A stretch of DNA of 64,000 nt from Thermodesulfobacteriota bacterium (GCA_034189385.1 JAXHVD010000003.1:32001-96000), one strand, 5' to 3'; numbered from the stretch's first letter, positions 1 through 27,104 are shown. The notes: generated by a model not told the origin, from the letters alone. Translations and numbers: made by a program.

Positions 1-951
1 CTCAACAAACTCGCCTTTCTCCTTTACCAAGGGCCTCGTCACAGGGCCTGCCCCCACTTCTACATGGGCACCCTTCACTGTTATTCCAAGGGGATCATAG
101 GTGCGGACGAAAGGAGAGGTGAGCCGATCTGGGCTATGAACGAATTGATAGCCAAAGCGCCCCCTAACACAAAGCTCTCCTTGATTCACAGGGTTACTAT
201 AATCGCCTCTGGCTTTCACCACAGTGTTGCCACGGACGCCCAGATAAAGCCCGCAGCCGACACCGCAGTAAGGACAGATGGTTTTCACCTCCCGACTGGG
301 ATACTGGATATTCTTGGGGATTAGAGCCCCTACTGGACAGCGCTCTACGCATTCCCCACAAGAAACACACACCGATTCTCGAAACGGTTTGTCGCCAAAG
401 GTGGCGACCTTCAGGTCGTAGCCGCGATAGGCCATGTCAATGGCATCAACGCCGACGATTTCCCGGCACGTTCGGATGCATATGCCACAATGGATACACT
501 TGTTTGCATTAAAATCAAAAAACGGATTGCTGGTATCAACAGGAAGCTCCTTGGCTACTCTCTTCAACCGGTTGAGCCGCCTCTCGTCGTAGCCGATGCG
601 GTTCACAAGAGCCTGCAAACGGCAAGTACCGCTCTTTGGACAAAGCAGGCAGTTGAAATCATGGTCACTCAAGATGAGTTCAAGGGTCACACGGCGAACC
701 CTTTCGATCTCCTCATCGTCTGTGATGACCACCATGCCCTCTTCAACGGGTGTGCGGCAGGCAGGATGGAGTTTTTTCTTCTTCTCAATCTTTACCAGGC
801 ATATACGGCAAACCCCCTCAGAGGTGAGCCCAGGACAATAACACAAGGTAGGGATAAAAATCCCAGCACTTCGGGCCGCCTCCAGGATGGTCATCTCCCT
901 TCTGGCCTTTAAGTGAATCCCGTCTATTTTCAGATTGACCTCGCCGCTCAT
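1..951 (-). CDS. fdhA: Formate dehydrogenase alpha subunit, N-terminal part (NuoG-like Fe-S domains plus start of molybdopterin-oxidoreductase domain); runs off the window edge
   Basis: Not in the ORF track (no stop in window). Manual translation from ATG 951: MSGEVNLKIDG...IPTLC...CRIC...PAC; HxxxCxxCxxxxxC; two CxxCxxCxxxC motifs; TICPYCGVGC...LCVRGRFG. Confidence 0.88.
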   Translation of the reverse strand, partial: MSGEVNLKIDGIHLKARREMTILEAARSAGIFIPTLCYCPGLTSEGVCRICLVKIEKKKKLHPACRTPVEEGMVVITDDEEIERVRRVTLELILSDHDFNCLLCPKSGTCRLQALVNRIGYDERRLNRLKRVAKELPVDTSNPFFDFNANKCIHCGICIRTCREIVGVDAIDMAYRGYDLKVATFGDKPFRESVCVSCGECVERCPVGALIPKNIQYPSREVKTICPYCGVGCGLYLGVRGNTVVKARGDYSNPVNQGELCVRGRFGYQFVHSPDRLTSPFVRTYDPLGITVKGAHVEVGAGPVTRPLVKEKGEFVE

Positions 952-1055
952 GGCTTGCCACTTACCTGCTCATCGTTACTTGTTACTCGTCACTGGATGG
1001 TGGTACTCTCACACGCCCGAAATCATTATTCAGCGAAACCGGAACGTGTTGTAAA

Positions 1056-2960
1056 TCACATGGTCAGGCCCGAGATACATTCCACAGCGTTAAACTTTGT
1101 GGGACAGGCCTCCATGCATGAGCCACACTTGATGCACTTGCTCTGATCGATCTCATGAACCTGCCTTTTCCCGCCTATAATGGCGTCAACGGGACAGGCC
1201 TTCAGGCAGAGCATACATGCCTTACACCGATATTCTTTTATACGGTAAGAGATCAGAGACCTGCACACAAGGGCCCGGCACCGTTTGTCACGGATGTGCT
1301 CTTCATACTCGTCTCGGAAGTACCGAATGGTGGAGATGACAGGATTCGGCACCGTTTGTCCCAGACCACATATAGACCCAGCCTTCACAGCCTCGGCCAA
1401 TTCTAAAAGGACAGCAATGTCATCGGGCCGGCCCTCTCCTCTCGTGATATCCCTGAGAAGTTGAAACATCTGTCTGGTGCCGAGCTTGCATAAGGTGCAC
1501 TGGCCACAGGACTCGTTTTGGGCAAAATCGAGAAAATAGCGGGCCATGTTCACCATGCAGGTGCGCTCATCCATGACCAGCATGCCGCCCGAACCCATGA
1601 TGGAGCCCACTTCGGCCAATGACTCATAGTCCACGGGAAGATCCAGAAGGCTTTCAGGGATGCAACCTCCAGAAGGCCCACCAGTTTGGACAGCCTTGAA
1701 TTGTCTGTCTCCCCTAATGCCTCCGCCGATGTCGAAGATAATTTCCCTGAGGGTCGTCCCCATGGGCACCTCAACAAGGCCCGTATTCTTCACATTTCCA
1801 GACAGGGCAAATACTTTGGTCCCCTTGCTCTTCTCCGTGCCCATACTGGCAAACCAGTCCGCTCCCTTAGAGACAATGGCCGGGACGCAGGCAAAGGTCT
1901 CCACGTTATTCAAAACGGTGGGCATGCCCCATAGCCCCACTATGCTGGTGTTGGGTCGAGGCAGTGGCTTTGGAAACCCGCGTTTTCCCTCTATTGACAT
2001 CACCAGGGCAGTGGATTCCCCGCATACAAAAGCCCCTGCACCCTTAACGATCTCAATCTCAAACCCAAAACTGCTTCCCATGATCTGGGGACCCAGGAGT
2101 CCCAGGTCTGTAGCCTGAGCAATGGCCGTCGTCAGATGCCGCACAGCAAGAGGATACTCTGAGCGCACATAGATGATCCCTTTGTGGGCGCCCACGGCGT
2201 ACCCGGCAATGATCATCCCTTCCAGCACACTGTGGGGGTCGCCCTCCATGACGCTACGGTCCATGAAGGCGCCGGGGTCCCCTTCGTCACCATTGCAGAT
2301 GATATACTTTTCCTCACCCGGTGCATTTCGAGACGACTCCCACTTGCGCCCTGTGGGGAAACCTGCGCCGCCCCTTCCGCGAAGGCCGGAGTCCTTCACG
2401 CAGGCAATCACTTCGTCCGGTTGCCACCTAGCCAGGACCATGCCGGCAGCCCCGTAGCCACCTATTCTGATGTAGTCCCCAATGTCATTGGGGTCTATCA
2501 CACCGCAATTTCTCAGCACCACCTTGATTTGCTTCTGGTAAAAAGGAATTTCGTCTATGTGGCGGTGCTTCTGGCCTGTCTGGGGGTCTTCATATAGCAG
2601 CCTTTCAACACATCGCTTCTTAATGAGCGTTTCTTCCACGATCTCGGGCACATCGTCTGGTGTCACACTGTGATAGAATATGTTTTGGGGTCGTACGGTA
2701 ACAATGGGCCCTTTCTCACAAAGCCCCTGGCACCCTGTTCTTTTTACAATGATGTTCTCTTCGTTTTCCTGGGTCTTGATTTCTCTGAGGAAGGCTTCGT
2801 GGATCTGCTGGCCGCCCGATACACCACAGCCCGGCACGCCGCAAATAGTCACATAAACAGGGTCCAGCCCTTCGCTGGTGATGAGAGATTCCCTGAGGCT
2901 GTCCAAGTCATCAAGACTTGTTATGGGGGGCAAGGTGTGTTGTCTATCGGGAGTTGTCAT
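1056..2960 (-). CDS. NuoF/HydB/HylB-like NADH- and FMN-binding subunit with N-terminal [2Fe-2S] and C-terminal 2[4Fe-4S] domains
   Basis: GLRGRGGAGFPTG, CNGDEGDPGAFMDR, GAFVCGE, GGPSGG, ESCGQCTLC, two C-terminal ferredoxin motifs. Confidence 0.95.
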   Translation of the reverse strand: MTTPDRQHTLPPITSLDDLDSLRESLITSEGLDPVYVTICGVPGCGVSGGQQIHEAFLREIKTQENEENIIVKRTGCQGLCEKGPIVTVRPQNIFYHSVTPDDVPEIVEETLIKKRCVERLLYEDPQTGQKHRHIDEIPFYQKQIKVVLRNCGVIDPNDIGDYIRIGGYGAAGMVLARWQPDEVIACVKDSGLRGRGGAGFPTGRKWESSRNAPGEEKYIICNGDEGDPGAFMDRSVMEGDPHSVLEGMIIAGYAVGAHKGIIYVRSEYPLAVRHLTTAIAQATDLGLLGPQIMGSSFGFEIEIVKGAGAFVCGESTALVMSIEGKRGFPKPLPRPNTSIVGLWGMPTVLNNVETFACVPAIVSKGADWFASMGTEKSKGTKVFALSGNVKNTGLVEVPMGTTLREIIFDIGGGIRGDRQFKAVQTGGPSGGCIPESLLDLPVDYESLAEVGSIMGSGGMLVMDERTCMVNMARYFLDFAQNESCGQCTLCKLGTRQMFQLLRDITRGEGRPDDIAVLLELAEAVKAGSICGLGQTVPNPVISTIRYFRDEYEEHIRDKRCRALVCRSLISYRIKEYRCKACMLCLKACPVDAIIGGKRQVHEIDQSKCIKCGSCMEACPTKFNAVECISGLTM

Positions 2961-3469
2961 TTCTGCCCTTTTCCCCGCTCTGGCCTGGAGGTTCTTTGCC
3001 CAGCTTTGTCGCTATCTTCCTTGTCTCGGCTCAGGAGTTCATTCATCTTAAAAGCCGTCATCTTAGGATATACTTCATCATCTATCATAACCACAGGCGC
3101 CATGGCACAAGAGCCGACACAAGCAACGCGCTCAAGGCTATATTCATAGTCTCTTGTAGTCTGCCCCGTCTTTATGCCCAATCGATACTGGGCTGTTTCC
3201 AAGATGTCACTGGCACCGCGGACATGGCAGGCGGATCCTTGGCAAACTTTTACAAGGTGATCACCTCGCCGCGTGAGATAAAAGTGCGCGTAGAAAGTAG
3301 CCACACTGAAAACCTGGCTTCTGGGTAGCCTCAGGAAGGTGGCGATTTCCTTTAGCGTCTCTTCGGGCAAATAGCCGAATTCCTCTTGCACCCTTTGCAG
3401 TATGGGAACCAATGCCCCCCTTTTCCCTTCAAAGACCGCCAAAATTTTCCGCAACCGTGCCTCGATCAT
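2957..3469 (-). CDS. NuoE/HydC-like [2Fe-2S] subunit
   Basis: LQRVQEEFGYLP, VATFY, CQGSAC, CVGSC-AMAP; 4-nt overlap with the NuoF-like gene. Confidence 0.95.
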   Translation of the reverse strand: MIEARLRKILAVFEGKRGALVPILQRVQEEFGYLPEETLKEIATFLRLPRSQVFSVATFYAHFYLTRRGDHLVKVCQGSACHVRGASDILETAQYRLGIKTGQTTRDYEYSLERVACVGSCAMAPVVMIDDEVYPKMTAFKMNELLSRDKEDSDKAGQRTSRPERGKGQK

Positions 3470-4488: not shown

Positions 4489-4549
4489 TTTCTGCTCCTC
4501 TTTTGTCTGGTTATCTTTCAGGACTGGGGCGAATACACAAAATCTGTGC

Positions 4550-5458
4550 TCAGGCACCAGGATACTGAACCGACTGCAAATGGGGCTCCGCTGCCAGAAA
4601 ATCCTGCACCCCCGAAATATCTATCTCATTATTGCCAAGGCCCAGGATCTCTTCGTCTAAGCCCATACTCAGTCCCAGGAGTTGAGGGTAGAGGATGGAT
4701 GGCACGTGGTGGTTTGTGCCCCCATTTGTTACCATCTCCTTCTGGATGGTCTCAAACTGCAACTGGCAAAACACGCACCCCGTTGTCAGATAGTGGGCAC
4801 CTGCACTTTTGGCATCTGTCAGTTTCTTTTCGGTAAAATCCAAAGAAAGGGCGTCGTTGGTCCCCAACAATGGGGCGCCACAGCACTCCAGCTTGGTGGA
4901 CCAGTCCACGCTCTCTGCCCCCGTCAGTTCCACCAGTTGATCAAACAAGGAGGGGGCCACGGGGTCGTCAAATTGAACGATCGGACTGGGCCGCAAGGCG
5001 TGACAGCCGTAATGGGTGGCAATCTTCAGGTCCTCGTAAGGCCTTAAGACTTTCTCCTTGATGGCATCAGTGCCCACATCGTGAAAAAGAACGCTGAGAA
5101 GATGCCTTACCTGAACCTTCGCCTCATATTTCAGACCTTCTTTGGCAAGGATTCTATTGACCTCCTCTCGCAACTGCCGGTCTTCTTTCATGAGATACTC
5201 GGCCATGCGGAATGTGCCGTAGCCGCACTTGCACAAAACGACCAGGTTTAGGTTCTCCCTTTCAGACAGGGCCAAATTCCTGGCCGAGGAGAGCACAAAG
5301 GCCTTTAGGTCGATGTTTCTCAATGGATACCCGCAACAGTTAAACTCTGCGATGTCCACCAGCGTCACACCAAGTTTTTCAAGCACCGCCCTTGAGGCTG
5401 TTTCATATTGCCTGAGTCGGATGGGAATGTTGCATCCAAGGAATATGGCAAGCTTCAT
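4550..5458 (-). CDS. hdrB: Heterodisulfide reductase subunit B-like protein (two CCG domains)
   Basis: FLGCNIP, FNCCG, HYGCHALRP, ECCGAP, GCVFCQLQF. Confidence 0.93.
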   Translation of the reverse strand: MKLAIFLGCNIPIRLRQYETASRAVLEKLGVTLVDIAEFNCCGYPLRNIDLKAFVLSSARNLALSERENLNLVVLCKCGYGTFRMAEYLMKEDRQLREEVNRILAKEGLKYEAKVQVRHLLSVLFHDVGTDAIKEKVLRPYEDLKIATHYGCHALRPSPIVQFDDPVAPSLFDQLVELTGAESVDWSTKLECCGAPLLGTNDALSLDFTEKKLTDAKSAGAHYLTTGCVFCQLQFETIQKEMVTNGGTNHHVPSILYPQLLGLSMGLDEEILGLGNNEIDISGVQDFLAAEPHLQSVQYPGA

Positions 5459-5477: not shown

Positions 5478-7163
5478 CTATGCAGCCTTACTTTTGATCT
5501 GTTTCAAGGCCAGGTTCTTGAGTTCATAGAGCACGTCCGTAACGCGCACGCCCTGTGGGCAGTGTTCCTGACACATGTAACATGTCACACAGTCCCAAAG
5601 CATGTTGGAGCCAATAGCCAGATCCTTTTGTTTCAAAGCAAGGCAGTGCATAATCTCGTGAGGAAGGAGTCCCAGCACAGCCTTTGGATCTTCATAGTTT
5701 CCAACAACAGGACAAACGTTTGTACAGGTCTGACAGCCGAAGCAATAGGAAAAGGTACTTGCTTGACCAGAAATCTCAAGGGCACTGGCAAAGGCCTTGT
5801 CCACAGGGGTCAGGGAGATTGGTTTCTCCTTGAGATGCGCCAAATCGAATTGAGCCCCCATCGTCTCTCTGGCCCAGGCCTCGGGTTTGGGATAGCCTCT
5901 TTGAGCTAACCGCTCATTTAGTTCTGACCAGGCCTTTTCCAGGTTGATGCCTATGGGACAGACATCGGTACAGCGATGGCAATCGGTGCAGATATGGCTT
6001 CCTTCCTGAATCCTGGTAAGCCTTTTCTTGCTTAGCCAATTTCCCGCAAGAAGGGCCCTCAACGCGGCCAGTTTTTCAGAGGGCAGGATGTTGGGATTGG
6101 GAATCTCGTCAAAGGCCACTGCCACAGAACAGCGTAGGGTACAATCCCCACAGTGCGTGCAAGCATCGATCTGCAGGGCCTGTCTGGTTGCCATATTCGC
6201 AGGATCGGATTTCGCCTCATCCATGACACTATCTGCCAGAAAGTACACAGGGGTTGAGAAAATGTGGAAAAACTTGCTAAAGGGAAGGTAGGCCAAACCG
6301 ATGAAGCAAGCCAGAAAATGAAGATACCATAGCCCTGTGTAAACCTTTGCCCGGTCCGTCAACAGGGCCACGGGCTTCAGTGCCCTCGAGGCGGAATAGC
6401 TCATAAATGCCCATTGGGGCCTGGAATGGCAGCTTGCACAGCTCATTTCATGCAGTTCTTGGCCTTGGTCCAGTGTTTCTTTGTCAAAGGGCCCTTTCAC
6501 ATTAGGAGACACCACACCGAAGCTTTGCACCCAGTAAGCTTCAAGGGCCTTGCTTTCTTCCGCCTCTTCTTCTCCAAGGCCAGCATACTCATCCACCATC
6601 TCTTTATATATTGAATGAGATAGGATCTTTGTCGCTTCTAAGAAAAAACCGGATATCATGATGACGCCCAACACGGCGATGGCATAGACATCCATAGACG
6701 CATTTTTCGGTCGAGGCTTTTTCAAAAAGAACCTACGATAAACGGCCATCCCGAGCCCCACAAGCACGACCAGACCAAAAAAGTCTCGCAAAAACATGAA
6801 AGGATTGAGTGTAGAGTAATATTCATCAAAGACAACAGCAGTGACCACTTTGTCGAGTCCATGCATCAGTAAAAGAAACATGAAACCGCCATATATACAT
6901 ATATGGGCAAGCCAGCGGATGAAGTCCTTCTTCAACAACCAGACCTGAAAGAGCACATCCCAAAAAAGGACCTTCACCACTGTGCCAATCCTGGGACTGC
7001 ATAGGCTTGAGAGGATACCCCTAGCTGCTGCCCACACCCTGGCCAAGCTGGAAATCTCCGAAGCCTCAGGGCCGACTTTCCATCTAAACCAGTTTGATAC
7101 CCTGTAGACCAAGCCGACTGCGAAAACAGCCAAAGAGGTGTATAGGGCAACGTCATAAAACAT
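5478..7163 (-). CDS. Membrane NarI-like cytochrome b domain with an inserted CxxCH motif, fused to two HdrC-like 4Fe-4S dicluster domains
   Basis: About 5 hydrophobic helices; His pairs AHICIYGGFMFLLLMH and LHFL...KFFH; CASCH; CTHCGDC, CTDCHRC, CFGCQTC, WDCVTCYMCQEHCPQGV. Confidence 0.88.
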   Translation of the reverse strand: MFYDVALYTSLAVFAVGLVYRVSNWFRWKVGPEASEISSLARVWAAARGILSSLCSPRIGTVVKVLFWDVLFQVWLLKKDFIRWLAHICIYGGFMFLLLMHGLDKVVTAVVFDEYYSTLNPFMFLRDFFGLVVLVGLGMAVYRRFFLKKPRPKNASMDVYAIAVLGVIMISGFFLEATKILSHSIYKEMVDEYAGLGEEEAEESKALEAYWVQSFGVVSPNVKGPFDKETLDQGQELHEMSCASCHSRPQWAFMSYSASRALKPVALLTDRAKVYTGLWYLHFLACFIGLAYLPFSKFFHIFSTPVYFLADSVMDEAKSDPANMATRQALQIDACTHCGDCTLRCSVAVAFDEIPNPNILPSEKLAALRALLAGNWLSKKRLTRIQEGSHICTDCHRCTDVCPIGINLEKAWSELNERLAQRGYPKPEAWARETMGAQFDLAHLKEKPISLTPVDKAFASALEISGQASTFSYCFGCQTCTNVCPVVGNYEDPKAVLGLLPHEIMHCLALKQKDLAIGSNMLWDCVTCYMCQEHCPQGVRVTDVLYELKNLALKQIKSKAA

Positions 7164-7281: not shown

Positions 7282-8181
7282 CTATAATTCCAGCCACGAA
7301 TCCGAATAGAGGGAATGCCCTAGGAGTACCTTTGCCGTCTTTACGTAATCCAACTCCGCCCTTCCAAGGGTTTCCATGTTGACATCCTTTCCCTCTACCA
7401 CAGATGTGACCAGAGAGGCGATATCCGATCTGTTACCCCGGGCAATGTCATGGAGATCCTTGTCAAAGGCATCCACAATACACGATTTCATGCCAAAGGC
7501 GTCCAGCATGATCATGTACGTCTGGTTCAAGATGGGGCGAAGGTGTTCCGGCGCCCCGTTAGAGACGTTAGATAGCCCGCACGTGGACCTGCAACCAGGG
7601 ACCAGAATTTCTGCTATCATATCCAGCTCCGACATGAATTGATTGCATTCCAGTAACTGGTTTTGCTGAACATTTACGGGCGTAATGATAGGATCGACCC
7701 AAATATCTTCTCCTGCCACCCCGGCCTCTGCCGCCCTTTGGAGGATGTCGGCGGCCAGCAGCCCCCGCTCAGCTGCATCCCGAGGCATTCCTTCAGGCCC
7801 CCAGAGTAGGGCAACCATGCCTGCATCGTACTGCGTCACCAAGGGGATCTGTCCCTCCATCCTCTCGGGACGGCACATGATAGAATTGATGACCGCCTTG
7901 CCCCCTTTATTATTGTACACCTTGAGGCCGGCCTCAATGGCGTTGACGTTGGTGGTGTCGAGATAAAGAGGAAGATCGACCACTTCCTGGACGGTCTTCA
8001 CCATCCATTCCATCAATTCCTCGCCCCCTTTTCTGGCAGGACCCAGATTCACATCTATGTAATCGACGCCGGCTTCGGCCTCGGCTTCAGCCAGTTCCTG
8101 GATCGGTTTCTGGTCCCGGTCCTTCATGGCCTGGCCGATCCTCTTCACCATGATATTCAGATTTTCGCCTATCAGAATCAT
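7282..8181 (-). CDS. acsE: Methyltetrahydrofolate:corrinoid Fe-S protein methyltransferase
   Basis: MILIGENLN start, YIDVNLG, LYLDTTN, INS, GLSNVS pterin-binding barrel; acs context. Confidence 0.92.
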   Translation of the reverse strand: MILIGENLNIMVKRIGQAMKDRDQKPIQELAEAEAEAGVDYIDVNLGPARKGGEELMEWMVKTVQEVVDLPLYLDTTNVNAIEAGLKVYNNKGGKAVINSIMCRPERMEGQIPLVTQYDAGMVALLWGPEGMPRDAAERGLLAADILQRAAEAGVAGEDIWVDPIITPVNVQQNQLLECNQFMSELDMIAEILVPGCRSTCGLSNVSNGAPEHLRPILNQTYMIMLDAFGMKSCIVDAFDKDLHDIARGNRSDIASLVTSVVEGKDVNMETLGRAELDYVKTAKVLLGHSLYSDSWLEL

Positions 8182-8199
8182 GCCCCCCCCCTATTAGAT

Positions 8200-8306
8200 A
8201 AGTGCCTAACGTGAAATAAGATGTGCTAAAGTGTCTAAAGTTACAGGTCTCGCAGAGCCTTTACTGCGACCGCAACTTTAGCTCACTCTAGACATTTTAG
8301 GCACTT
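8200..8306. repeat. Intergenic palindromic element built from degenerate 9-10-mers (AGTGCCTAA / AGTGAGCTAA), copy 1
   Basis: Left arm AAGTGCCTAACGTGAAATAAGATGTGCTAAAGTGTCTAAAGTT; right arm AACTTTAGCTCACTCTAGACATTTTAGGCACTT is its approximate reverse complement. Confidence 0.75.
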
Positions 8307-8318
8307 CTGCTCACTCTC

Positions 8319-9668
8319 CTATGCCTTCCATTCCTTGAGATAGGCCGGGATATGCGCCGATTCCCTTGGTCCAACCAGGACTTCCCAGTCGCTCCCCAGC
8401 TCCTCTTCAAGATCCCCTAATATGGCTGCAGCATAGCCGGGTATGACTACCTTTCTGTGGTTGATCTTATCTCCAATGCCGCACTTCTTGATCGCCATGC
8501 CCACCACGTCTCCTACAAACTTACCAGCAGCCCAAGCCGTAAGGACAGACAGACCTTCGGTGTCCACAATAATCAACCAAGCCGGCACGCGACTGGTTTC
8601 AATCTCCCCGGACACGATAAAGTAGGTCAGAGAAAAATTGGACGTTACCAAGACAGGCGAGTTTTCCGTGGGCCCCCCGATTTCATAGATGCCTGGCGAC
8701 GTGGCCATGGGGCGCTGGGGATCTGTGTAAATGTTCATGCGGGCCAGCAGAAGGGGAAACAGGCTGTGTCCCTGTAAGTCTGAAAGCAAGACAATACCGC
8801 CGTACTTGGCTATACACATAGATGCCAGCAATGTCTCTTTCATGAGATCATCGGTCATCTCACAAGGCAGGCAAATGGTGGGAAAACCAAGGGCCTTGTT
8901 CTTCTTTAAGAGGGCTGCCCGGCGGATGAATATCTGATCTTCAAAGACCTTTCTTGGAGCCCTGGCCCCAGAGTCGATCACCAGATCGTTTAACCCGGCG
9001 GCTGTCAGTCTTGTGGTCAGCTCTGAGACGTCGTCAAGGCCATCTCCCTTGACCGTTAATGCACAGCCATGTTCTTTGGCAACTCCTGACATAGCGTCGG
9101 CATTCTCCTTGGTGGCCGCATACATGAGAGGTTTACAGTCCCCACAGGCTTTCAAGCCCGCCTCCATGACAGTGGCGTCTTCGGTCATGAGGATGATGCC
9201 CCCCTCTGTCTCGTTTTTTACTCTTGTGGCCAGTGCCGCGAACTTGCCAGCATCGCCTGATAGGGATTTCACGGCAACAAGGTCTGCCTTCAAGGTAAGG
9301 CCCACCCGCTCATATTCCAGGGTCTTGAATCGCTCAAGACGCCCGGCCACGTCATCATCAGCCATCTCATCTGTGACAACGACGCCTATGCCAGTTGGAT
9401 GCAAGAAGGTCTTTTCGTGGCGGAAAAGCACTGTTTCGCCGCCCATCTTAAATTTTCGTTCTCCCGTACCGATCTCAACGATCCTGATGGGTGGGGCCGA
9501 GGCATCAGCCAGCTCTGCCTTGGATTCTTCTGTGACATAAGGGCAGGCCGCCAGTTCCGCCTTGCCTGCTGCTAGGTTCATTGCAAATGCCAGACAGGTG
9601 GGCACTCCGCACTCCCCACAATTCGTCTTAGGTAGGAGTTTGTAAATCTGAATTCCCGTCAACGCCAT
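8319..9668 (-). CDS. acsC: Corrinoid Fe-S protein large subunit (CODH/ACS gamma)
   Basis: LPKTNCGECGVPTCLAFA..ACP, IYTDPQRP, TSNFSLTYF, SVLTAWAAGKF. Confidence 0.97.
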   Translation of the reverse strand: MALTGIQIYKLLPKTNCGECGVPTCLAFAMNLAAGKAELAACPYVTEESKAELADASAPPIRIVEIGTGERKFKMGGETVLFRHEKTFLHPTGIGVVVTDEMADDDVAGRLERFKTLEYERVGLTLKADLVAVKSLSGDAGKFAALATRVKNETEGGIILMTEDATVMEAGLKACGDCKPLMYAATKENADAMSGVAKEHGCALTVKGDGLDDVSELTTRLTAAGLNDLVIDSGARAPRKVFEDQIFIRRAALLKKNKALGFPTICLPCEMTDDLMKETLLASMCIAKYGGIVLLSDLQGHSLFPLLLARMNIYTDPQRPMATSPGIYEIGGPTENSPVLVTSNFSLTYFIVSGEIETSRVPAWLIIVDTEGLSVLTAWAAGKFVGDVVGMAIKKCGIGDKINHRKVVIPGYAAAILGDLEEELGSDWEVLVGPRESAHIPAYLKEWKA

Positions 9669-9689
9669 ATCATCCCTCCGTTGTTGAAG

Positions 9690-9802
9690 AAGTGCCCAAA
9701 GTGAGCTAGAGTATGTAAAGTCAGAAAAACAAGACCAAGTAATTTCAAGACTGCTTTCAACTCCTCAACTCAAGGCACTTCAGGCATTTTAGCTCACTCT
9801 AG
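9690..9802. repeat. Intergenic palindromic element built from degenerate 9-10-mers, copy 2
   Basis: AAGTGCCCAAAGTGAGCTAGAGTATGTAAAGT ... ACTCAAGGCACTTCAGGCATTTTAGCTCACTCTAG; same units as 8200-8306. Confidence 0.72.
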
Positions 9803-9807
9803 AAAGC

Positions 9808-12015
9808 CTATTCCAAAATAGGATCCATGGACAGCGCCGGATGACCTTTCTCCTCGAGAAAAGAAAGGATCTCCTCTTCGCTTGTCCCCACCGTTTCATC
9901 AGCAATCATGTCGGGAAGATCGGGGATGCCGATTTCTTCTGCCCTCTTCTTGAGGCGGTCTAAGACCTCTTCTTTCAGACGTTTTGGCATCCAAACCAGC
10001 CGTTTGATCCCACCGTCGCCGCTGATCCATTTCCTCTGCGTAAGATTGTATTTGCCGTGTCCCACAAAGCCTGGCACACTCATGCCGCCGCCGATGGTTC
10101 CCGCAAGGGTAGTGAATTTCATGCCGCAGGGCGTCATCCCCATGTAATCCCGGTCTACGGTCATGACGCCGTTACAAATAGGAAGTATGGCAGCGATGCA
10201 CTCGCAACACCCGCACGTGGTCATGGGGTCATGGACAATGCTGTAGAAATTGTAGTGATCCAATGCCTGCCGTGAGGCCTTGTAGAGAAAGGCATTGCAG
10301 CCCTTCCATTGACCAAGGTTGGCGTCTAGACATTCCCCCTTATCCACAGGCTGGTTCGGACCAGTGGGATTGATCTCATAAGAAGCCTTGCAGTCCATCC
10401 AGTTATAGGCCCCACACAGTCCCGTACGTTCGGGACTGATAATACAGACATGGTTCGGTGCAAAGGACTGGCACAAGGTGCAGGAGTAAAACACTTCCGT
10501 TGTCTCGTCTGTCATCCCCTCGATGCGCGCGTCCCTTACTTGGTATACTTGCCTTGCCTTTTCCACCATCTCCTTGACTTTGTCTTCTTCCGTATACAGC
10601 TTGATCTGGACCTTGTCAAAGATGGCTCCAAAATCTTGATGAAACTTTGCATGGAGGATGTCTCCGATGTGTTTGATCTTCAGCCCTTTTCCCGCTGCCG
10701 CCTTGGACATCCTTATCCAGGCAATGTCTCTTTGGCCGATGTGCATGAGACCCTGGGCATAGTTGACAAAATGATGAATCTGCCGTTCCAGGATAGGCTC
10801 GAAGTCCTCCTGCATCTTCCTGCCAGCAAACTCGGCCAAAATGGCCAGAGGCAGCCTTGCCCCTGGTTCCACGTCGTCCACATCAGGGCCAAAGACCTCG
10901 ATCTTGCCATCTTCCACTTGATCCATTTCCCTGGTAGTCACCCATTCCACAGCCGGGGTTCTACCACCGCCGAACTCCACGTAGAGATCGTCCTTGCGGA
11001 CCCGTTCCCCTTCAAAGGCTGGCCCGTAGGACACCGGTACGGGCACTTTTGCCACGCTTACCTTCAGGCCTCTAACCTCAATGGCCCTGGCTACCAGTTC
11101 ATTGTGGGGGACATTGGAGACCACATGTTCATAGGTACAAATGCCCGTTGGCCGGATCTCCGGGATCGCCGTATCGGCAATGACCGGAAAACCCCAATTG
11201 ATGGCACCGGCTGCATTGGCATACCACTCATCGGTTACCATGCCCAGGGGCAAAGCAAAGGCAAAGATACGATCCTTGTTGTAGAGCAGGTTCCGTCTGA
11301 AATCCCCTGGCTTCACCCCCCCAAAGGACATGGCGGCCCGTGTGGCAAATCCCATGGCAAATATGGTGGCCGTGTACTCTGGACCGAAGGAGACCAGCCG
11401 TGTCCCCCATCCGATCTGTATCCCCGCCTCCACCAACTGTTCAGACATGGTACGCCCTTCGTGATCGGCACACATGAAGACATAGAGATTCTTCTCCTGA
11501 AGCTCCTGGGCAAGCTGGACAGCGATCTCTTTGGTGGGAGGCGCCCCAAGAATGGCTGCAAAGCCTGGCGCGGTGCCGTCAACAAATTCAACACCCCGCT
11601 TGCGCAGTATGATGTCGTCAGCAGCCCCCAACCAGAGGTTGCCGTCAGCCGGCCCTTCCGTCTTGGTATAGAAATCAGGGGCCTCTAGATACCGGATGGC
11701 CTCAATCACCTCTTCTGCAAAAAGTGTGGCCATGCCAGCTTCCAGGGCCGGTGCCAGATAGGGAAGCCACACCTCATCGGCCACCATCTCCGGCAGCAAG
11801 GACCTGCACCGACCAAGGACCTCTTCCACATCTTTGAGGTTTTTCACAGCAATGCCCAAGATGCCATAGATGATGGGAAGATAATAGGCTGTGTTGGGGA
11901 ATCCGATTTCCTGTTCAGGTCCCCATTTCTCCATGGCTGCTTGATGCTTGTCTTGTGCCCGTTGGACGATCTTGTGGGCACCACGAATCGCTGCCGAGCA
12001 GATGATTTTTGACAC
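9808..12015 (-). CDS. acsB: Acetyl-CoA synthase (ACS) catalytic subunit
   Basis: FYSCTLCQSFAPNHVC, GLCGA, PMTTCGCCEC A-cluster motifs; GTG start. Confidence 0.97.
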   Translation of the reverse strand: MSKIICSAAIRGAHKIVQRAQDKHQAAMEKWGPEQEIGFPNTAYYLPIIYGILGIAVKNLKDVEEVLGRCRSLLPEMVADEVWLPYLAPALEAGMATLFAEEVIEAIRYLEAPDFYTKTEGPADGNLWLGAADDIILRKRGVEFVDGTAPGFAAILGAPPTKEIAVQLAQELQEKNLYVFMCADHEGRTMSEQLVEAGIQIGWGTRLVSFGPEYTATIFAMGFATRAAMSFGGVKPGDFRRNLLYNKDRIFAFALPLGMVTDEWYANAAGAINWGFPVIADTAIPEIRPTGICTYEHVVSNVPHNELVARAIEVRGLKVSVAKVPVPVSYGPAFEGERVRKDDLYVEFGGGRTPAVEWVTTREMDQVEDGKIEVFGPDVDDVEPGARLPLAILAEFAGRKMQEDFEPILERQIHHFVNYAQGLMHIGQRDIAWIRMSKAAAGKGLKIKHIGDILHAKFHQDFGAIFDKVQIKLYTEEDKVKEMVEKARQVYQVRDARIEGMTDETTEVFYSCTLCQSFAPNHVCIISPERTGLCGAYNWMDCKASYEINPTGPNQPVDKGECLDANLGQWKGCNAFLYKASRQALDHYNFYSIVHDPMTTCGCCECIAAILPICNGVMTVDRDYMGMTPCGMKFTTLAGTIGGGMSVPGFVGHGKYNLTQRKWISGDGGIKRLVWMPKRLKEEVLDRLKKRAEEIGIPDLPDMIADETVGTSEEEILSFLEEKGHPALSMDPILE

Positions 12016-12117
12016 CTTTCCACTACCTCGTCTGTTTGAGTTAGCCTTTAGCGCCTATCGACCTGGATACGCGCCGCACAACAGATGAAGGGTCTACCGC
12101 TCACGGCCACGGTGACA

Positions 12118-13065
12118 TCAGTTTGCCATCAAATCAGTGACGAAACCTCTGACCAGTTGAATAGCCTTTGGATGACGCATGATGAGGATATCTCCTCCCG
12201 CCAGCAGGAGCAAGAGCGCTGTCATGGCCTCAAGGAGGACGCCTCTTTTCAAAGGATCGCCCAACAAGGGGGCTTGCTCCGTGCTCAGTCTCGCCTCTTT
12301 TACCTTCCACACCTCCTTAGCCAAGTTGCACACAACGGGAAACTGGAGCCTCTCGTCCTCCTGGGTCAGGGCTGCCATCCGGTCTCTTTCCATGACGGAA
12401 TAACAATACTCCAATCCATATCCCAGCCCTGCCACAGTGGGATCTACAACAATGCCCTCGTCAGGCACGCCTAGGTTTCCCAACAGGATGTTCAGCTGTT
12501 TTGCCAGGTTGATATCAATGGGCGAAGAAGCAGCAATGGCGTGTTTATAGGCTATGGCAGCTGCGCCCAAAGCCTTGTGGCTATCTTCTTCCACGGGGCC
12601 GAGGATGAGGCTTTCTTCAGCGCAGGCCTCTGCCACCATCTTCAAGACCTCCGTATCCTTTTCCACGTTCCCGCTTCCCCACACCAAGACAGGGACTTCC
12701 ACGGCAGCAGCCACCTTCTTGGTCACCTCCACGGCCTGTTCAGCTGAGGCATTTTGGGCATTGGGGTCTGTGCTGGCCAACTGCAATGCCACCATCTCTG
12801 CCCCGTATACGGACACACACTTCTGGGCCCATGCTGCCGGGTCATTGATGACATCGGAAAACGGCTCCACTACCGCTTCAGGCCAGTCCTCAGGCGGCGC
12901 ATCATATACGTCCATGGCAATGACTGGCCGGTGGGGCATTTCTCCTTCAAAGAGATAAAAGGGATAGGAGGTCTCTCCTCCCACAGTGATTCGGTTCGCA
13001 TCTTTGCCCAACGGGATCTCCTTGATGACACCATTGTACGATATCTTCGGTGCTTCAAATACCAT
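12118..13065 (-). CDS. acsD: Corrinoid Fe-S protein small subunit (CODH/ACS delta)
   Basis: DINLAKQLN, GLGYGLEY.YSVMER.R.AAL, MRHP; start ATG 13065 with GAGGAG RBS. Confidence 0.96.
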   Translation of the reverse strand: MVFEAPKISYNGVIKEIPLGKDANRITVGGETSYPFYLFEGEMPHRPVIAMDVYDAPPEDWPEAVVEPFSDVINDPAAWAQKCVSVYGAEMVALQLASTDPNAQNASAEQAVEVTKKVAAAVEVPVLVWGSGNVEKDTEVLKMVAEACAEESLILGPVEEDSHKALGAAAIAYKHAIAASSPIDINLAKQLNILLGNLGVPDEGIVVDPTVAGLGYGLEYCYSVMERDRMAALTQEDERLQFPVVCNLAKEVWKVKEARLSTEQAPLLGDPLKRGVLLEAMTALLLLLAGGDILIMRHPKAIQLVRGFVTDLMAN

Positions 13066-13173
13066 ATTTACTCCTCTCCTCACGTCTTTAGGTTAGCTGA
13101 TAACCGATGACTGCTTCCGCTTAAAGGACCACGGCCAAAGCTTGTGTCATGGGGCACCAATCAAACACCGCCC

Positions 13174-14049
13174 CTACATACCTAATTCATCCAAGATGGA
13201 AGGAATCTTGTTCTCCCATCCCAAGGCCATGATGTGCACGCCGTCGCAAAGATCCTTCATCCCCTTGATCAGGCGAACAGCAATGTCCATACTGGCTTGC
13301 GCCTTATCCTCCGATGCCTTCATCTCGTCAATCAGGGGCTCTGGAACAAAGACCCCTGCCACGTTCTTGTTCATGTAGCGGGCCATACCCACCGATTTGA
13401 GCAAGATGACGCCACCTAACACCTTGGCACCAAAACCCTCCACACGCTTCATGAATTTCTCAAAGATATCCAAGTCATAGACGGCCTGGGTCTGAAAAAA
13501 CTTGGCGCCCGCCTCGATCTTCTTCTCCATCTTTATGATCTGCAGCTCCAGGGCAGCTTCATTATCTGCCCCGGGGTTTACAACGGCCCCGCACAAGAAG
13601 TGGGGCGCTCCCTTGAGTTCCTTTCCAGCCATGTCAACACCGGAATGCAGCTTCCTCGCAGCTTCCAGGAGTGTCACAGAGTCCAAATCGAAAACCGGTT
13701 TGGCCTTGGGATGATCCCCCAGCGTGGGATGGTCACCAGTGAGGGCAAGCATATTCCTGATCCCAAGAACCCAGCCGCTTAAGAGATCTGCCTGCAAGGC
13801 GAGCCTGTTGCGATCCCTGCACGTGACCTGATAGATGGGGTCGATTCCCCTGTCCTTTAGCAGATGACAGACCGCCATGGAGCCCAGGCGCATGACCGAG
13901 CTCTGTAGGTCTGTCACGTTCACAGCATCTACTCGATCTTTAATGATATCAGCATCTTTTAGCAAATGCTCTACATCCGTTCCCTTGCCAGGTCCGACCT
14001 CGGCAGTCACCAAGAACTTCCCTGATTCTAAGGCTTCTCTAAAGCTCAT
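13174..14049 (-). CDS. metF: Methylenetetrahydrofolate reductase, copy 2
   Basis: VTAEVGPGKG, AVNVTD, TCRDRNRLALQ, LTGDHP, KIEAGAKFFQTQ, GVHIM. Confidence 0.93.
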   Translation of the reverse strand: MSFREALESGKFLVTAEVGPGKGTDVEHLLKDADIIKDRVDAVNVTDLQSSVMRLGSMAVCHLLKDRGIDPIYQVTCRDRNRLALQADLLSGWVLGIRNMLALTGDHPTLGDHPKAKPVFDLDSVTLLEAARKLHSGVDMAGKELKGAPHFLCGAVVNPGADNEAALELQIIKMEKKIEAGAKFFQTQAVYDLDIFEKFMKRVEGFGAKVLGGVILLKSVGMARYMNKNVAGVFVPEPLIDEMKASEDKAQASMDIAVRLIKGMKDLCDGVHIMALGWENKIPSILDELGM

Positions 14050-14153
14050 GGCTCACCCCTTTACATGGACCATCTTCCATGGAAAATTAACGATTACAAG
14101 GCTCAAAAAAGAAAGCATCTCTTGGGGGGTTCAAAATACTTCGTCATCAATCG

Positions 14154-14819
14154 TCAATCCGCTTGCGTCTTTTCCACCTGCCGCAGATCCTCCCTGACTA
14201 CCCTTCCTGGGTGCACAGGCCAGTCTTTCACCTGGGGCCTTTCCTTGAGATAATGCAGCATGTCTAACCGCTTGAGGGCATAGTATATCTCCTGCCAGGC
14301 ACAGGGACGGTCCCTGGAGACCTCGCATTTCCCTCCTGATGCCCCTCCACATGCGCCATTGAGAAGGCCCTTGGCACATCGGGTCACGGGACACACACCA
14401 CCCGTCCTCCACAGGATACAGTCGCCACAGGCCTGGCAGTTCTCTGTCCAGACGCCTGTCTCCTTTTCCACCCCGATGAACTGGGTATTCAGGGCCGGCA
14501 AGACCGGTTTGTCAGGAAAACGACTGGCAACGGCTTGAACGCCATTGCCACAGGCCATGGAGAGGATAGCTTCATGGTTACCTATCTTCTCTTCCAGCCG
14601 ATCGATAAATCTATCGGCGCATTGTCTTGGGATGGTCGTCTTCTCGACAAAGATCTCCTTGTTTTCAGAAACAAGGGCCTCTGCGAGATTGTCTACCTGC
14701 TCTGCCCCACCGGCAGAGCAGAAGGTCACGCAGGCACCGCAACCTACCAAGAGGATCCTATGGTACGGAGCAACCATGTGCCGTATCTCTTCCATTTGCT
14801 TCTGTTCTGCAATGATCAT
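14154..14819 (-). CDS. metV: MetV-like Fe-S/Zn subunit of methylene-THF reductase, copy 2
   Basis: GCGAC...C, RQC, ACG.G, CQACGDC..GVCPVTRCAKGLLNGACGG...CEV...CAW. Confidence 0.9.
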   Translation of the reverse strand: MIIAEQKQMEEIRHMVAPYHRILLVGCGACVTFCSAGGAEQVDNLAEALVSENKEIFVEKTTIPRQCADRFIDRLEEKIGNHEAILSMACGNGVQAVASRFPDKPVLPALNTQFIGVEKETGVWTENCQACGDCILWRTGGVCPVTRCAKGLLNGACGGASGGKCEVSRDRPCAWQEIYYALKRLDMLHYLKERPQVKDWPVHPGRVVREDLRQVEKTQAD

Positions 14820-14836
14820 TCTATACCTCCAAGACG

Positions 14837-17212: not shown

Positions 17213-18130
17213 CTAGACGATCGGCCTGGGCATCAAGCCGGCTTCCTCCACAATTCGCGGTACAATGTCTTCCCAGGCTACGGCCATGATGTGCACACCG
17301 TGGATCCCGTCAACCTCCTTGAGCTGCTCAATGGTCTCAAGGCAGATCCGCACCCCTTCTTCCTTGGGATCCTTGGCATCGCCCATCCGATCAACGATCG
17401 CCTTTGGCACGCTAAGGCCAGACACGTTGTTTCGCATGTAGCGCGCCATGCCAACGGACTTAATCGGTATGAGCCCGGCAAGTATGTGGGTTTTTTCATC
17501 CAGGCCCCTGTCTTTAACCATCGTCATCCACTCAACGAATTTGGCCATGTCAAATATGCCCTGGGTTTGGATGAAGTCTGCGCCGGCCTTCACCTTTTTG
17601 GCCAAACGGGTGACGCGAAATACAAAGGGATCGGCAAAAGGATTGGCTGCTGCACCAATAAAGAAGGGGGTGTCTCCTGAAAATTCTTCACCGTTGATGA
17701 ATTGGTGTTCATCCCGCATGTTTTTGACCATCTGAAGGAACTGTATGGAATCGATGTCATATACCCCCTTGGCCGTGGGGTGATTGCCGAAACGCTGATG
17801 ATCGCCGGAAAGGCAAAGGACATTTCGAATACCCAGGGCCGCCGCCCCTATGAGATCACCCTGCAGGGCGAGACGATTCCGGTCTCTGACAACCATCTGC
17901 AGGACCGGCTCCACGCCCACTTCTTTTAACAGCACACAGCCGCTCATGCTGGACATGCGCACAATCGCGGTCTGGTTGTCTGTCACATTCAAGGCGTCAC
18001 AGCAAAACTTGAGAAGGTCGCCCTTTCTCCTAATGACGGTGGGGGCCGGTCCCTTTGGAGGCCCACACTCGGCCGTGACAGCGAATTGCCCGCTTTCCAA
18101 TATCCTTTCCAGATTGCTTCCTGCCTTCAT
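17213..18130 (-). CDS. metF: Methylenetetrahydrofolate reductase, copy 1
   Basis: VTAECGPPKG, LNVTDNQTA, RDRNRLALQ, LSGDH, KKVKAGADFIQTQ, GVHIMA. Confidence 0.94.
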   Translation of the reverse strand: MKAGSNLERILESGQFAVTAECGPPKGPAPTVIRRKGDLLKFCCDALNVTDNQTAIVRMSSMSGCVLLKEVGVEPVLQMVVRDRNRLALQGDLIGAAALGIRNVLCLSGDHQRFGNHPTAKGVYDIDSIQFLQMVKNMRDEHQFINGEEFSGDTPFFIGAAANPFADPFVFRVTRLAKKVKAGADFIQTQGIFDMAKFVEWMTMVKDRGLDEKTHILAGLIPIKSVGMARYMRNNVSGLSVPKAIVDRMGDAKDPKEEGVRICLETIEQLKEVDGIHGVHIMAVAWEDIVPRIVEEAGLMPRPIV

Positions 18131-18795
18131 GACTCAAGATCCTCCCTGACCATCTTTCTGGGGCCGCCGTGTCCGGCCGGTGACCAGTCCTTGACGGGAA
18201 AGATCTCCTCTAGCATCTCCAGCCGATTCAGCTTGGTGAGGCGGTCTATGATGAGTTGCCATACACAATCTACCTCTTTGCTGATTTCACATTTTCCATC
18301 CACCGAACCGCCGCAGGGGCCATTTAAGAGTTGCTTGGAGCACCTGGCAATGGGACAAAGCCCGGCCGTCTTGTCCAGGATGCAGTTTCCGCAGCCAGCG
18401 CAGCGCTCTGACCAGACCCCCAGTCTTTCAGTCACCCCCAAAAAGGTCGTGTTGCAGCCAGGCAGGATGACCTTGTCTGGAAATCGCTCAGCCAAAAGTT
18501 GAACCCCTGCTCCGCAGGCCAAAGAGAGAACGGCATCGCATTGGGCCACCTCTTTTTCGGTCATATCAATGAATTCAGGCTCGCACTGCCTGGCAACAGC
18601 GTCATATAAGACCTCACTCTTGTCGCCCGACATCTTCCTGGCCACACGAATGGCAGCAGCCAGGACTTCGGCCTCTTTCTTGCCACCTGCCAACGACATG
18701 GCGGCACAGGTCTCACATCCCAGCACCAGCAGGCGTCCGCACCCCTTGGTCATCTTTTCAATCTCTTCAAATGGCTTCTGCTCTAAAGTAATCAC
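18127..18795 (-). CDS. metV: MetV-like subunit, copy 1
   Basis: GCETC, RQCE, ACGAG, CAGCGNC...CPIARCSKQLLNGPCGG...CEI...CVW; 4-nt overlap with metF. Confidence 0.92.
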   Translation of the reverse strand: MITLEQKPFEEIEKMTKGCGRLLVLGCETCAAMSLAGGKKEAEVLAAAIRVARKMSGDKSEVLYDAVARQCEPEFIDMTEKEVAQCDAVLSLACGAGVQLLAERFPDKVILPGCNTTFLGVTERLGVWSERCAGCGNCILDKTAGLCPIARCSKQLLNGPCGGSVDGKCEISKEVDCVWQLIIDRLTKLNRLEMLEEIFPVKDWSPAGHGGPRKMVREDLES

Positions 18796-23925: not shown

Positions 23926-24040
23926 GATTGACGATTGAATATGGAATACTGAAGATTGACGAATGTCCATCGAGCCATGACGATTGCAGCAAACAGCAAG
24001 CCGTTTCTTGCCCAATTCTCAATCGACAATGATCAATTCA
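23926..24040. repeat. Inverted arrays of degenerate heptamers (GATTGAM / CAATYNN) between hdrA and folD
   Basis: GATTGAC GATTGAA TATGGAA TACTGAA GATTGAC GAATGTC ... CAATTCT CAATCGA CAATGAT CAATTCA. Confidence 0.7.
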
Positions 24041-27000: not shown

Positions 27001-27104
27001 AGGGCAGCCTGAACCCCTGCGATCCCAGCTCCCACCACCATCACCGAGCCGATAGGTGACAACGAGGAATGGGGTGTTGCAGCAATGTCTCTATCGTCTT
27101 CCAT
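24033..27104 (-). CDS. hdrA: HdrA-like flavoprotein with two FAD modules and multiple Fe-S clusters
   Basis: GAGIAG...GGKMAQLDKTFPTNDC, QCVGSRD..YCSSVCC, IGVFVCHCG, ASCSPRTHE, second GGGVAG and QCVGSR..YCSKVCC, C-terminal ferredoxin. Confidence 0.94.
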   Translation of the reverse strand: MEDDRDIAATPHSSLSPIGSVMVVGAGIAGVQAALDLADLGFKVYLVEREAAIGGKMAQLDKTFPTNDCSMCILSPKLIECDRNANIDIITLAEVKTIEGEAGYFNVILVKRPRFIDEDRCTNCGQCTLHCPLTVSDPYNEGMSGVKNLHIHFAQAIPAIPYIDPTKCLFKTRGVCRICTGACQRNAIDLNQQEEEFALEVGAVVLALGFETFDPKMKSAYGYGRFPNVVTSLEFERILSATGPFEGHVRRPSDGEEPRKIAWLQCVGSRDPSVGRGYCSSVCCMYAIKEAVLAKEHAQEGLDTAIFYIDMRTHGKDFEKFYNRAREQAGVRFVKSRIDAVLQEEETGNLIFHYANEEGKRVREIFNMVVLSVGLGPSEQAVELSRKLGIRLDHDGFAETGSFTPVSTSRPGIYVCGAFQGPKDIPESVMEATASAGEASALLAPARFTLAEPHAYPDERDVGEEEPRIGVFVCHCGINIAGVVDVPDVKEYAKTLPHVAYVDENLFSCSQDTQSDIKQVIKEHHLNRLVVASCSPRTHEPLFRETLREMGLNQYLFEMANIRDQCSWVHANEPEKATEKAKDLVRMAVAKASVIQPLDEPTVPVTKAGLVVGGGVAGMTSALNLAEQGYEVHLVERGSSLGGQARKIYETWKGEDVRTYLLEMTTRVQDHPSVHVHVDTSVKAVEGFVGNFESTLVDGKGREERVAHGATILATGGEAFKPSEYLYGKDGRVFLSLELDQEMAENGPRFAEAKTAVFIQCVGSRDPQRPYCSKVCCTHSIRSALRLKDLNPELDIYILHRDIRTYGKREGIYREARSKGIVFMRYRLENKPVVKEKDDKLVVTVTDHVLQCPVAIEADILTLASAIVPSKDNEALARVFKVAMNQERFFLEAHVKLRPVDFATDGIYLAGLAHYPKPIEESIAQAQAAAAKAGTLLGQDSIVTPGVIARVDEQLCVGCGLCAELCPFGALRVAETKDGRKAQVIDVGCKGCGVCAASCYRHAIGVNAFTDEQLDSQVKAFLN

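Follow-up and report, generated by a model that had tools for sequence, protein, structure and literature searches.

A 64,000-nucleotide stretch of a Thermodesulfobacteriota bacterium genome (GCA_034189385.1 JAXHVD010000003.1:32001-96000), here called the window, carried on its minus strand a single-copy gene (5478-7163) for a membrane-anchored HdrC-type protein of 561 residues. The gene stood next to hdrB and directly after a set of acetyl-CoA synthase genes. In the encoded protein, a five-helix cytochrome b domain was followed by two iron-sulfur dicluster domains, and a short insert with the motif CASCH lay between transmembrane helices 4 and 5 (TM4 and TM5). We considered it very probable that CASCH was a true heme c site. 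The feature was real and was conserved throughout a large family that is still uncharacterised.

Domain architecture and the predicted heme c insert

The open reading frame (ORF) contained five hydrophobic segments that matched the five long N-terminal helices of an AlphaFold2 model built from a 134-sequence alignment (mean predicted local distance difference test score, pLDDT, 82.8). The NarI family PF02665 scored 33.6 bits, above its cut-off of 22.9, and dicluster families were also found by Pfam. Two His pairs, H87/H101 and H282/H300, were kept in 79/79 ORFs from 80 genome loci. Thus, the NarI-like domain with five helices and two His pairs described in a first-pass annotation of the DNA was borne out. 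The best fold match of the model was the mycobacterial EtfD 9OJN (Foldseek E 8.5e-6; VIA Z 15.2, root-mean-square deviation (rmsd) 5.2 over 320), followed by HdrC chains (VIA Z 13.6) and then by NarI (VIA Z 9.5). Moreover, residues 6-425 aligned with an HdrF-like protein of 674 residues (L130; hhalign probability 99.8%) with one clean gap at residues ~185-247. Judged from these comparisons, the protein looked like an HdrC to which the front half of HdrF or EMO, a cytochrome b with a dicluster, had been joined. The stand-alone layout of DsrM, HdrE and NarI, a membrane domain without an Fe-S fusion, did not describe it.

The iron-sulfur tail had four CxxCxxCxxxC motifs, starting at residues 335, 392, 474 and 525, and all 16 Cys were present in 120/120 homologues. 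When scanned alone, dicluster 1 gave TfrB, GlpC, HmcF and SdhB-type matches, and dicluster 2 matched HdrC (TIGR03290, 1.7e-15). The two-cubane HdrC domain occupied residues 445-558, which superposed on HdrC chains with VIA Z 13.6 and rmsd 2.3 over 106; the TIGR03290 score of the whole protein was below the cut-off. Thus, the last motifs were HdrC-like as first annotated, but the name "double HdrC" was right for dicluster 2 only, dicluster 1 being HdrD/EMO-like. The sequence CTDCH (392-396) was rejected as a second heme site: it was part of an Fe-S motif, and its His was found in only 70/120 homologues.

The fusion itself is already annotated in the source databases, where members were labelled "HdrC/nitrate reductase gamma subunit", "4Fe-4S dicluster protein" or "putative heterodisulfide reductase, hybrid of subunit"; heme c was missing from those names. 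No NCBIfam model reached its cut-off on the protein among the matches listed (the best 25 of 29), and in the ESM Atlas the family was represented only by clusters with NarG-like names (best score 0.85).

The CxxCH motif was kept in 120/120 top homologues (57-95% identity), in the 79/79 ORFs, in 40/40 further genomic loci (a few of which repeated earlier loci) and in 94/96 distant representatives at 30-60% identity, this last set being the region-spanning sequences out of 150 listed 50%-cluster representatives. The 80th locus (L010) had two internal stops and retained both CxxCH and the Met described below. Down to 30% identity, the motif was therefore as conserved (94/96) as the heme b histidines (H282 in 94/96 and H300 in 93/96). 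The chance expectation for one CxxCH per 95 residues, taken from the ORFs of this genome, was ~4.5e-4. Thus, the conservation of CASCH, named as a check in the first-pass annotation, was borne out, and the motif did lie in the TM4-TM5 loop. The insert proper, however, was not the whole loop but residues ~185-247: in the profile alignment to L130 it opened four residues before Met189 and closed one residue past His246. Met189, which the first-pass description of the insert did not include, was kept in 120/120 close homologues, 79/79 loci and 95/96 distant representatives. The two exceptions for CxxCH among the 96 were P0158, which lacked the whole insert, and P0260, which diverged past the motif start as if frameshifted. 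P0158 had 503 residues with the remainder intact, reflecting either a natural loss or an assembly error.

Since the ends of the insert replaced a short turn after TM4, geometry would place Met189 and CxxCH close together at the membrane surface. We infer that the heme c would be ligated by His246 and Met189, near the distal heme b. His238 was rejected as the sixth ligand, only 64/96 distant homologues carrying it.

The side of the membrane was predicted from loop charges averaged over 134 sequences. The TM3-TM4 loop, which contained RRFFLKKPRPK, was positive (mean 4.75 K+R and 0.03 D+E), whereas the TM2-TM3 loop (0.74 K+R and 2.16 D+E) and the TM4-TM5 loop (8.7 K+R versus 15.4 D+E) were acidic. 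Therefore, the TM4-TM5 loop and its insert were predicted to be periplasmic, in agreement with the first-pass annotation. The top coupling pairs were D127-S255 and F173-S255, with E176-S255 also joined and the partners lying at the outer ends of TM3 and TM4, and Y186-W251 followed further down the ranking; this analysis was noisy (213 sequences, effective number Meff 160). A ccm cluster on contig C7 had CcmC-, CcmE- and CcmF-type matches preceded by ABC-transporter-like ORFs, so that the maturation genes named as a check in the first-pass annotation were found. A further PF01578 gene was located on contig C2, and 27 ORFs of this genome had at least three CxxCH motifs. Thus, by its conserved CxxCH, its predicted outer side and the maturation genes of the genome, the protein was predicted to be a c-type cytochrome. 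Several large genes for multiheme cytochromes, with 7-14 CxxCH and products of up to 1299 aa, were also observed in this genome at G000:C1:320590-329586 and C12:192810-205319.

The profile of the insert matched mostly cytochrome c heme-attachment helices in the PDB (44 matches at E<=10, best E 3.2e-4). Pfam Cytochrome_CBB3 was matched by 51/115 members at E<=0.1, the score of the window protein itself being below the cut-off. Residues 176-282 folded alone by AlphaFold2 with a pLDDT of 92. The likeness to class I cytochromes c was limited to the helix ahead of CxxCH, and the invariant Met was upstream rather than downstream of the motif. CcoP may use an upstream Met ligand as well. The available part of PMC7876108 did not mention such a ligand, and no CcoP over the cut-off was found in five genomes. 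A weak structural match to CcoP (Z 3.2) placed residues 12-72 of the model on residues 174-224 of the chain, with CxxCH in register by numbering; cytochrome matches of the insert at Z 3.2 were at the noise level of VIA.

PF01578 was over the cut-off in 45/45 other carrier genomes, which was in line with heme c maturation but permissive only, this family being probably common in the phylum. Against a known cytochrome c domain, the fold of the insert had no match at Z>=5 among 48,161 chains (VIA; best Z 3.5). The lack of a cytochrome c fold match would also be expected if CxxCH were a periplasmic redox disulfide of the DsbB kind, or a Cu/Zn site together with Met189, and no heme were bound. A Met ahead of CxxCH is unusual for class I cytochromes, and a quinone-linked CxxC has a precedent in DsbB. 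On the other hand, His246 was as invariant as the cysteines, the helix ahead of CxxCH matched N-terminal helices of cytochromes c, and maturation genes were present in every carrier tested, which made a site without heme very improbable. The insert alone also had no Foldseek match at E<=0.001, which did not in itself prove a new fold; a new minimal heme c fold may nevertheless be present.

The same insert was found in four one-chain HdrF/EMO-type proteins (P0187, P0191, P0238 and P0243), in which two CCG domains accompany a single dicluster, so that the unit of heme c and cytochrome b was modular. No fusion of greater length (983-2805 aa) was found to contain the insert, which was weak evidence. 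Shorter proteins gave 20 matches, several labelled partial, and no stand-alone insert was established among them.

Gene neighbourhood and the HdrB partner

The homologues represented 113 distinct loci (120 minus five exact duplicates, one near-duplicate and L010). As the first-pass annotation indicated for the window, hdrB was the next gene, and this was so in 107/110 loci with enough downstream DNA. A gene of the hdrA/hdrL type followed hdrB in 56/90 loci and was present somewhere in 37/57 loci for which each flank was 4 kb or longer. The metVF or acs genes occurred in 18/113 loci, fdhA in 17 and flxAB in 7, and etfA was found in 2/120 loci and was not among the annotated neighbours in the window. 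Periplasmic cytochrome or hydrogenase genes were absent from the commonest neighbour clusters. In a FastTree phylogeny, metVF/acs neighbours recurred in several separate clades and the partners were spread across the tree. One locus (L026:485-8878) had the order metF, 561-residue-type gene, hdrA, mvhD, metV and metF with no hdrB between them. Five others (L054, L059, L060, L076 and L079) had a nuoE-like gene, mostly with a nuoF-like gene as well, after hdrB and an hdrA-like sequence on either side.

The insert was detected at E<1e-25 in 45/300 other sampled genomes of the phylum. Carriers included Syntrophaceae genomes with fdh neighbours and cultured strains, e.g., Desulfarculus baarsii DSM 2075 (ADK84152.1), which makes the family testable. 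Plasmids had no full-length match to the protein, and no RNA data set holding it was listed among the sequencing runs.

The hdrB product aligned over its full length with methanogen HdrB (E 1.5e-57). Catalytic HdrB has ten cluster cysteines, with a CxxC closing each CCG domain, whereas the HdrB of the window had Gly79 at the position of C81 and Cys78 at that of Gly80. The Cys at the Gly80 position was invariant (69/69 alignment rows), and among 75 relatives the motif was CxCC in 55 and CxCG in 20. In the accessible part of the EMO report (bioRxiv 10.64898/2026.08.18.745454), Gly535 stands at the C81 position, so that a [4Fe:5S] cluster results, and the coenzyme M site is blocked by His534, one residue earlier. 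With Gly at this position in both, the window HdrB resembled the non-catalytic EMO, and by its motif it would more probably pass on electrons than reduce a disulfide.

The host genome contained aprBA-qmoABC-sat, dsrMKJOP, qrc-like and c3-like genes, as named from their sequences, and therefore the host was considered a sulfate reducer. In such a host, the protein could also be part of a cytochrome c/quinol:disulfide oxidoreductase of the DsrMK/TmcCB/HdrDE kind, in which electrons would be taken up by heme c or from quinol and would end on HdrB for the reduction of a protein disulfide, e.g., that of DsrC, HdrA being optional. This alternative came closest to the first-pass idea of a wire from a periplasmic heme c through heme b/quinone to HdrB. 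It was in line with hdrB as the most constant neighbour, with the full-length likeness to methanogen HdrB, with the Apr, Qmo, DsrMKJOP and Qrc-like genes of the host and with the many loci that had no hdrA nearby. However, such an enzyme would not need the extra HdrC domain, as a single dicluster and a pair of CCG domains suffice in the four one-chain proteins; moreover, the HdrB motif was altered at the position blocked in EMO, and Syntrophaceae genomes with fdh neighbours were among the carriers. Overall, we regarded this alternative as unlikely. The first-pass idea was thus supported in part, as HdrB may not be where the electrons end, given the recurrent third partner HdrA/HdrL, the locus without hdrB and the altered motif.

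In the window, the gene was one of 21 consecutive genes that all pointed the same way and were separated by no more than 139 bp: fhs, hdrA, folD, CO dehydrogenase, a GltD-like/MvhD fusion, metVF, a two-component set, metVF, acsD, acsB, acsC, acsE, the 561-residue gene, hdrB, a fructose-bisphosphatase (FBPase)-like gene, and nuoE-like and nuoF-like genes, followed by a nuoG-like gene and fdhA (Table 1). The names fhs, folD and CO dehydrogenase were assigned from the sequences and not by a family scan. The 692-residue GltD-like/MvhD fusion could be the NAD-linked arm of a methylene-tetrahydrofolate (THF) reductase. A promoter and terminator scan gave results at chance level.

Several minor features accompanied this run. 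The two metVF pairs (~42-44% identical) flanked a histidine kinase and two response regulators (13174-18795), and a third pair was located on contig C62. The nuoG-like/fdh N-terminal ORF (1-951, minus strand) and fdhA (G000:C23:30138-32951) were two ORFs 12 bp apart, where selenocysteine read-through was possible. The last 8 bp of hdrB overlapped with the FBPase-like gene (3478-4557, minus strand), which was also found between hdrB and nuoE in the close relatives L001, L003, L005 and L036; a second FBPase gene was on contig C20.

Table 1. Position of the genes, domains and residues discussed in the text, in window coordinates
Feature	Position	Strand	Remarks
Membrane-anchored HdrC gene	5478..7163	-	561 aa; cytochrome b domain, predicted heme c insert, two dicluster domains
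NarI/HdrE/EMO-type five-helix membrane domain, residues 1-310	6234..7163	-	PF02665; VIA Z 15.2 to EtfD 9OJN, 9.5 to NarI
His87, predicted proximal heme b ligand	6903..6905	-	79/79 loci; equivalence to EMO H87 suggested by spacing
His101, predicted distal heme b ligand	6861..6863	-	120/120, 79/79; Ala101 in twin-heme EMO, equivalence presumed
RRFFLKKPRPK, positive-inside TM3-TM4 loop	6705..6737	-	Family mean charges
Family-specific insert, residues ~185-247	6423..6611	-	Three helices; predicted periplasmic monoheme c mini-domain; gap versus HdrF-like L130
Met189, candidate distal heme c ligand	6597..6599	-	53 residues ahead of CxxCH; conserved, role presumed
CASCH heme c attachment motif, residues 242-246	6426..6440	-	Class I-like G-x-x-x-H-x-x-x helix ahead of motif
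His282, predicted distal heme b ligand	6318..6320	-	120/120; 94/96
His300, predicted proximal heme b ligand	6264..6266	-	120/120; 93/96
Dicluster domain 1 (HdrD/HdrF/EMO type)	5889..6203	-	Motifs at C335 and C392; split scans, L130 alignment
Dicluster domain 2 (HdrC type)	5493..5831	-	Motifs at C474 and C525; PDB HdrC chains E 4e-13
hdrB-like partner, 302 aa	4550..5458	-	Two CCG domains; starts 19 bp after the 561-aa gene; follows it directly in 107/110 loci
Altered HdrB motif C76-K-C78-G79	5222..5233	-	Methanogen HdrB: C78-N-G80-C81 (5ODC_B)
nuoE-, nuoF-, nuoG-like modules of putative NAD-linked formate dehydrogenase	1..3469	-	fdhA beyond the left end of the window
acsE, acsC, acsB, acsD (acetyl-CoA synthase genes)	7282..13083	-	Directly upstream of the 561-aa gene
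metF and metV, copy 2	13174..14819	-	PF02219, PF12225
metF and metV, copy 1	17213..18795	-	PF02219, PF12225
GltD-like NAD(P)H module fused to Fe-S dicluster and MvhD (FlpD) domains, 692 aa	18798..20876	-	2 bp before metV
hdrA, 1023 aa, candidate partner in the same co-oriented cluster	24033..27104	-	NF040770 1017.9 bits, cut-off 1100; partnership presumed

Proposed electron path

In the accessible part of the Syntrophus aciditrophicus EMO report (bioRxiv 10.64898/2026.08.18.745454), H87 and H251 bind the proximal heme, H233 binds a twin distal heme, and position 101 is Ala. Since the 561-residue protein had His at all four equivalent positions, as judged by spacing, two ordinary bis-His hemes b were predicted. 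Together with one outward-facing heme c and four [4Fe-4S] clusters, these would make up the cofactors of the protein. The predicted chain would run from heme c (His246/Met189) through the distal heme b (H101/H282), the proximal heme b (H87/H300), dicluster 1 and the HdrC-type dicluster 2 to HdrA and HdrB. In this chain, HdrB would serve less as a disulfide reductase than as an electron relay or a place for docking.

Taking the observed motifs, conservation and neighbourhoods together with the predicted topology, cofactors and ligands, we proposed that a membrane-bound HdrC linked HdrB and an HdrA-type flavoprotein, via four cubanes and hemes b, b and c, with quinone or with cytochromes of the periplasm. 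In this genome, where the gene lies in the Wood-Ljungdahl cluster, the enzyme served would probably be MetVF of that pathway. The chances of this proposal as a whole seemed to us about even. The most likely job in this host would be to carry electrons of the interconversion of methyl-THF and methylene-THF (MetVF-MvhD-HdrA) to or from the membrane; during acetyl-CoA oxidation, they would run outward.

A number of facts told against the proposal. The hdrA gene of the window lay 17 kb upstream of the 561-residue gene, and the genome had many other hdrA-like genes. The hdrA/hdrL genes were missing from 20 of the 57 loci with these long flanks (4 kb or more each), and the counts may be high since the hdrL query also matched GltD-like domains. 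The nearest relatives (L001-L005 and L036) had no hdrA within the flanks examined. With only 18/113 loci, the Wood-Ljungdahl link was local and not family-wide. Additionally, the window HdrB kept 9/10 canonical cysteines, and 55/75 relatives kept all 10, which was compatible with catalysis. Finally, hemes with His/Met ligands often have a high potential and may not suit low-potential c3 donors.

It might also be that the heme c had no periplasmic partner at all. In this case, it would be a third, covalent heme that capped the distal heme b and tuned quinone chemistry at the outer face, like the EMO twin heme in a reverse redox loop. The insert was small (63 aa), its ends were at the membrane surface, and the commonest neighbour clusters had no gene for a periplasmic cytochrome or hydrogenase. 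A precedent is the extra distal heme of EMO, described in the available text as serving quinone reduction driven by proton-motive force (bioRxiv 10.64898/2026.08.18.745454). On the other side, the distal heme b site already held two conserved His, and the acidic exposed stretch (15 D+E versus 9 K+R) would suit a soluble basic partner. Genes of soluble c3 partners need not be nearby. Thus, we gave only a low probability to a heme c of this kind.

Returning to the proposed wire between HdrA, HdrB and the membrane, a stronger form of it would be that this widespread undescribed family makes HdrABC-type bifurcating complexes membrane-integral and electrogenic. Electrons would then pass from HdrA through two hemes b to the heme c, for which a new fold of 63 residues would provide the site, with the Met ligand before CxxCH, and on to periplasmic cytochromes without quinone. 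We put this forward tentatively and think it rather less probable than the general proposal. If it were true, it would provide the missing coupling site for methyl-THF oxidation in complete-oxidising sulfate reducers. Bifurcating complexes of the HdrA type are regarded as soluble; the family would supply a gene-encoded transmembrane wire for them, and it recurred together with Flx, formate dehydrogenase, hydrogenase-like and MetVF modules.

Relation to known systems

With EMO (ETF:(methyl)menaquinone oxidoreductase), EtfD and HdrF, the protein shared a NarI-like five-helix cytochrome b domain followed by a dicluster domain. In those proteins, the CCG domains follow in the same chain, whereas the 561-residue protein had no PF02754 and its CCG domains were on the separate HdrB. 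It differed further by the 63-residue insert with CxxCH and Met, by the second, HdrC-type dicluster, by the His at position 101 that is absent from EMO, and by neighbours among which hdrA/hdrL was common and etfA rare (2/120). HdrF (HdrF1-3) was defined by membrane, HdrC and HdrB domains in one chain, according to the accessible part of PMC2702500. One heme b is reported for EtfD (PMC13083937) and three for EMO (bioRxiv 10.64898/2026.08.18.745454), with no heme c mentioned in the portions available.

With soluble HdrABC and its bacterial forms (FlxABCD-HdrABC, HdrABC/HdrL and MetVF-HdrCBA-MvhD of Sporomusa and Moorella), the protein shared the HdrC domain at its C terminus, an adjacent hdrB, the gene order C-B-A(-mvhD) and flx, fdh or metVF neighbours. 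The gene order supported a putative complex with HdrA and HdrB, such as soluble HdrC forms. However, the HdrC described here was membrane-integral with five predicted helices, whereas the soluble HdrC of Sporomusa has 22 kDa (PMC9430772, available part), and the HdrB partner differed by its CxC(C/G) motif. The HdrC of Desulfococcus multivorans, at 210 aa, was also far shorter, and the published hdrABC of this species was rejected as a member for this reason. In the accessible text of PMC9430772, MetVF interacts with HdrA, HdrB and MvhD and is membrane-linked in Sporomusa, with MvhD only assumed as the linker; the present family might offer a membrane route for such a methylene-THF reductase.

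The partial texts of PMC10553843 and PMC10504309 describe the logic of DsrMK(JOP), TmcABCD, HmcAEF and HdrDE as a path from periplasmic cytochrome c or quinol through cytochrome b to an Fe-S/CCG protein. In DsrMK(JOP), Tmc and Hmc, the c-type hemes are on separate multiheme subunits. The first-pass statement that QmoC and DsrM lack a heme c motif held for the QmoC and DsrM of this genome, the true qmoC being on contig C1. QmoC also combines cytochrome b with an HdrC-like dicluster serving HdrA-like subunits, but it has the reverse domain order, one dicluster and a place beside qmoAB/aprBA, and its model NF038018 scored 53.6 bits on the 561-residue protein against a cut-off of 300. In HotSeep-1 (AMM42179.1-AMM42180.1; PMC10553843, accessible part), a "QmoC fusion" listed with four heme motifs also binds heme c and stands beside an HdrA. 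It was a functional precedent but probably a different protein.

Thus, the protein would work like the Tmc, Dsr and EMO wires, yet it did not belong to any of them. Full-text searches, in which subscription journals were largely missing, found no description of this architecture with the insert, and no such protein was described in the available parts of PMC5109826 with its supplement, PMC5947623, PMC9012536, PMC10504309, PMC13416013 and PMC7876108. The wiring principle was known from Tmc, Dsr and HdrF/EMO; the architecture and the insert would be the new part, of specialist interest as a Met-before-CxxCH insert in a membrane-bound HdrC. A different arrangement was observed in the same phylum, where a multiheme cytochrome c (7 or 11 CxxCH) was fused ahead of a related cytochrome b (L131, L132, L134, L135, with no NCBIfam match at E<=1e-6, L136 and L137), in some cases beside HdrD-like genes.

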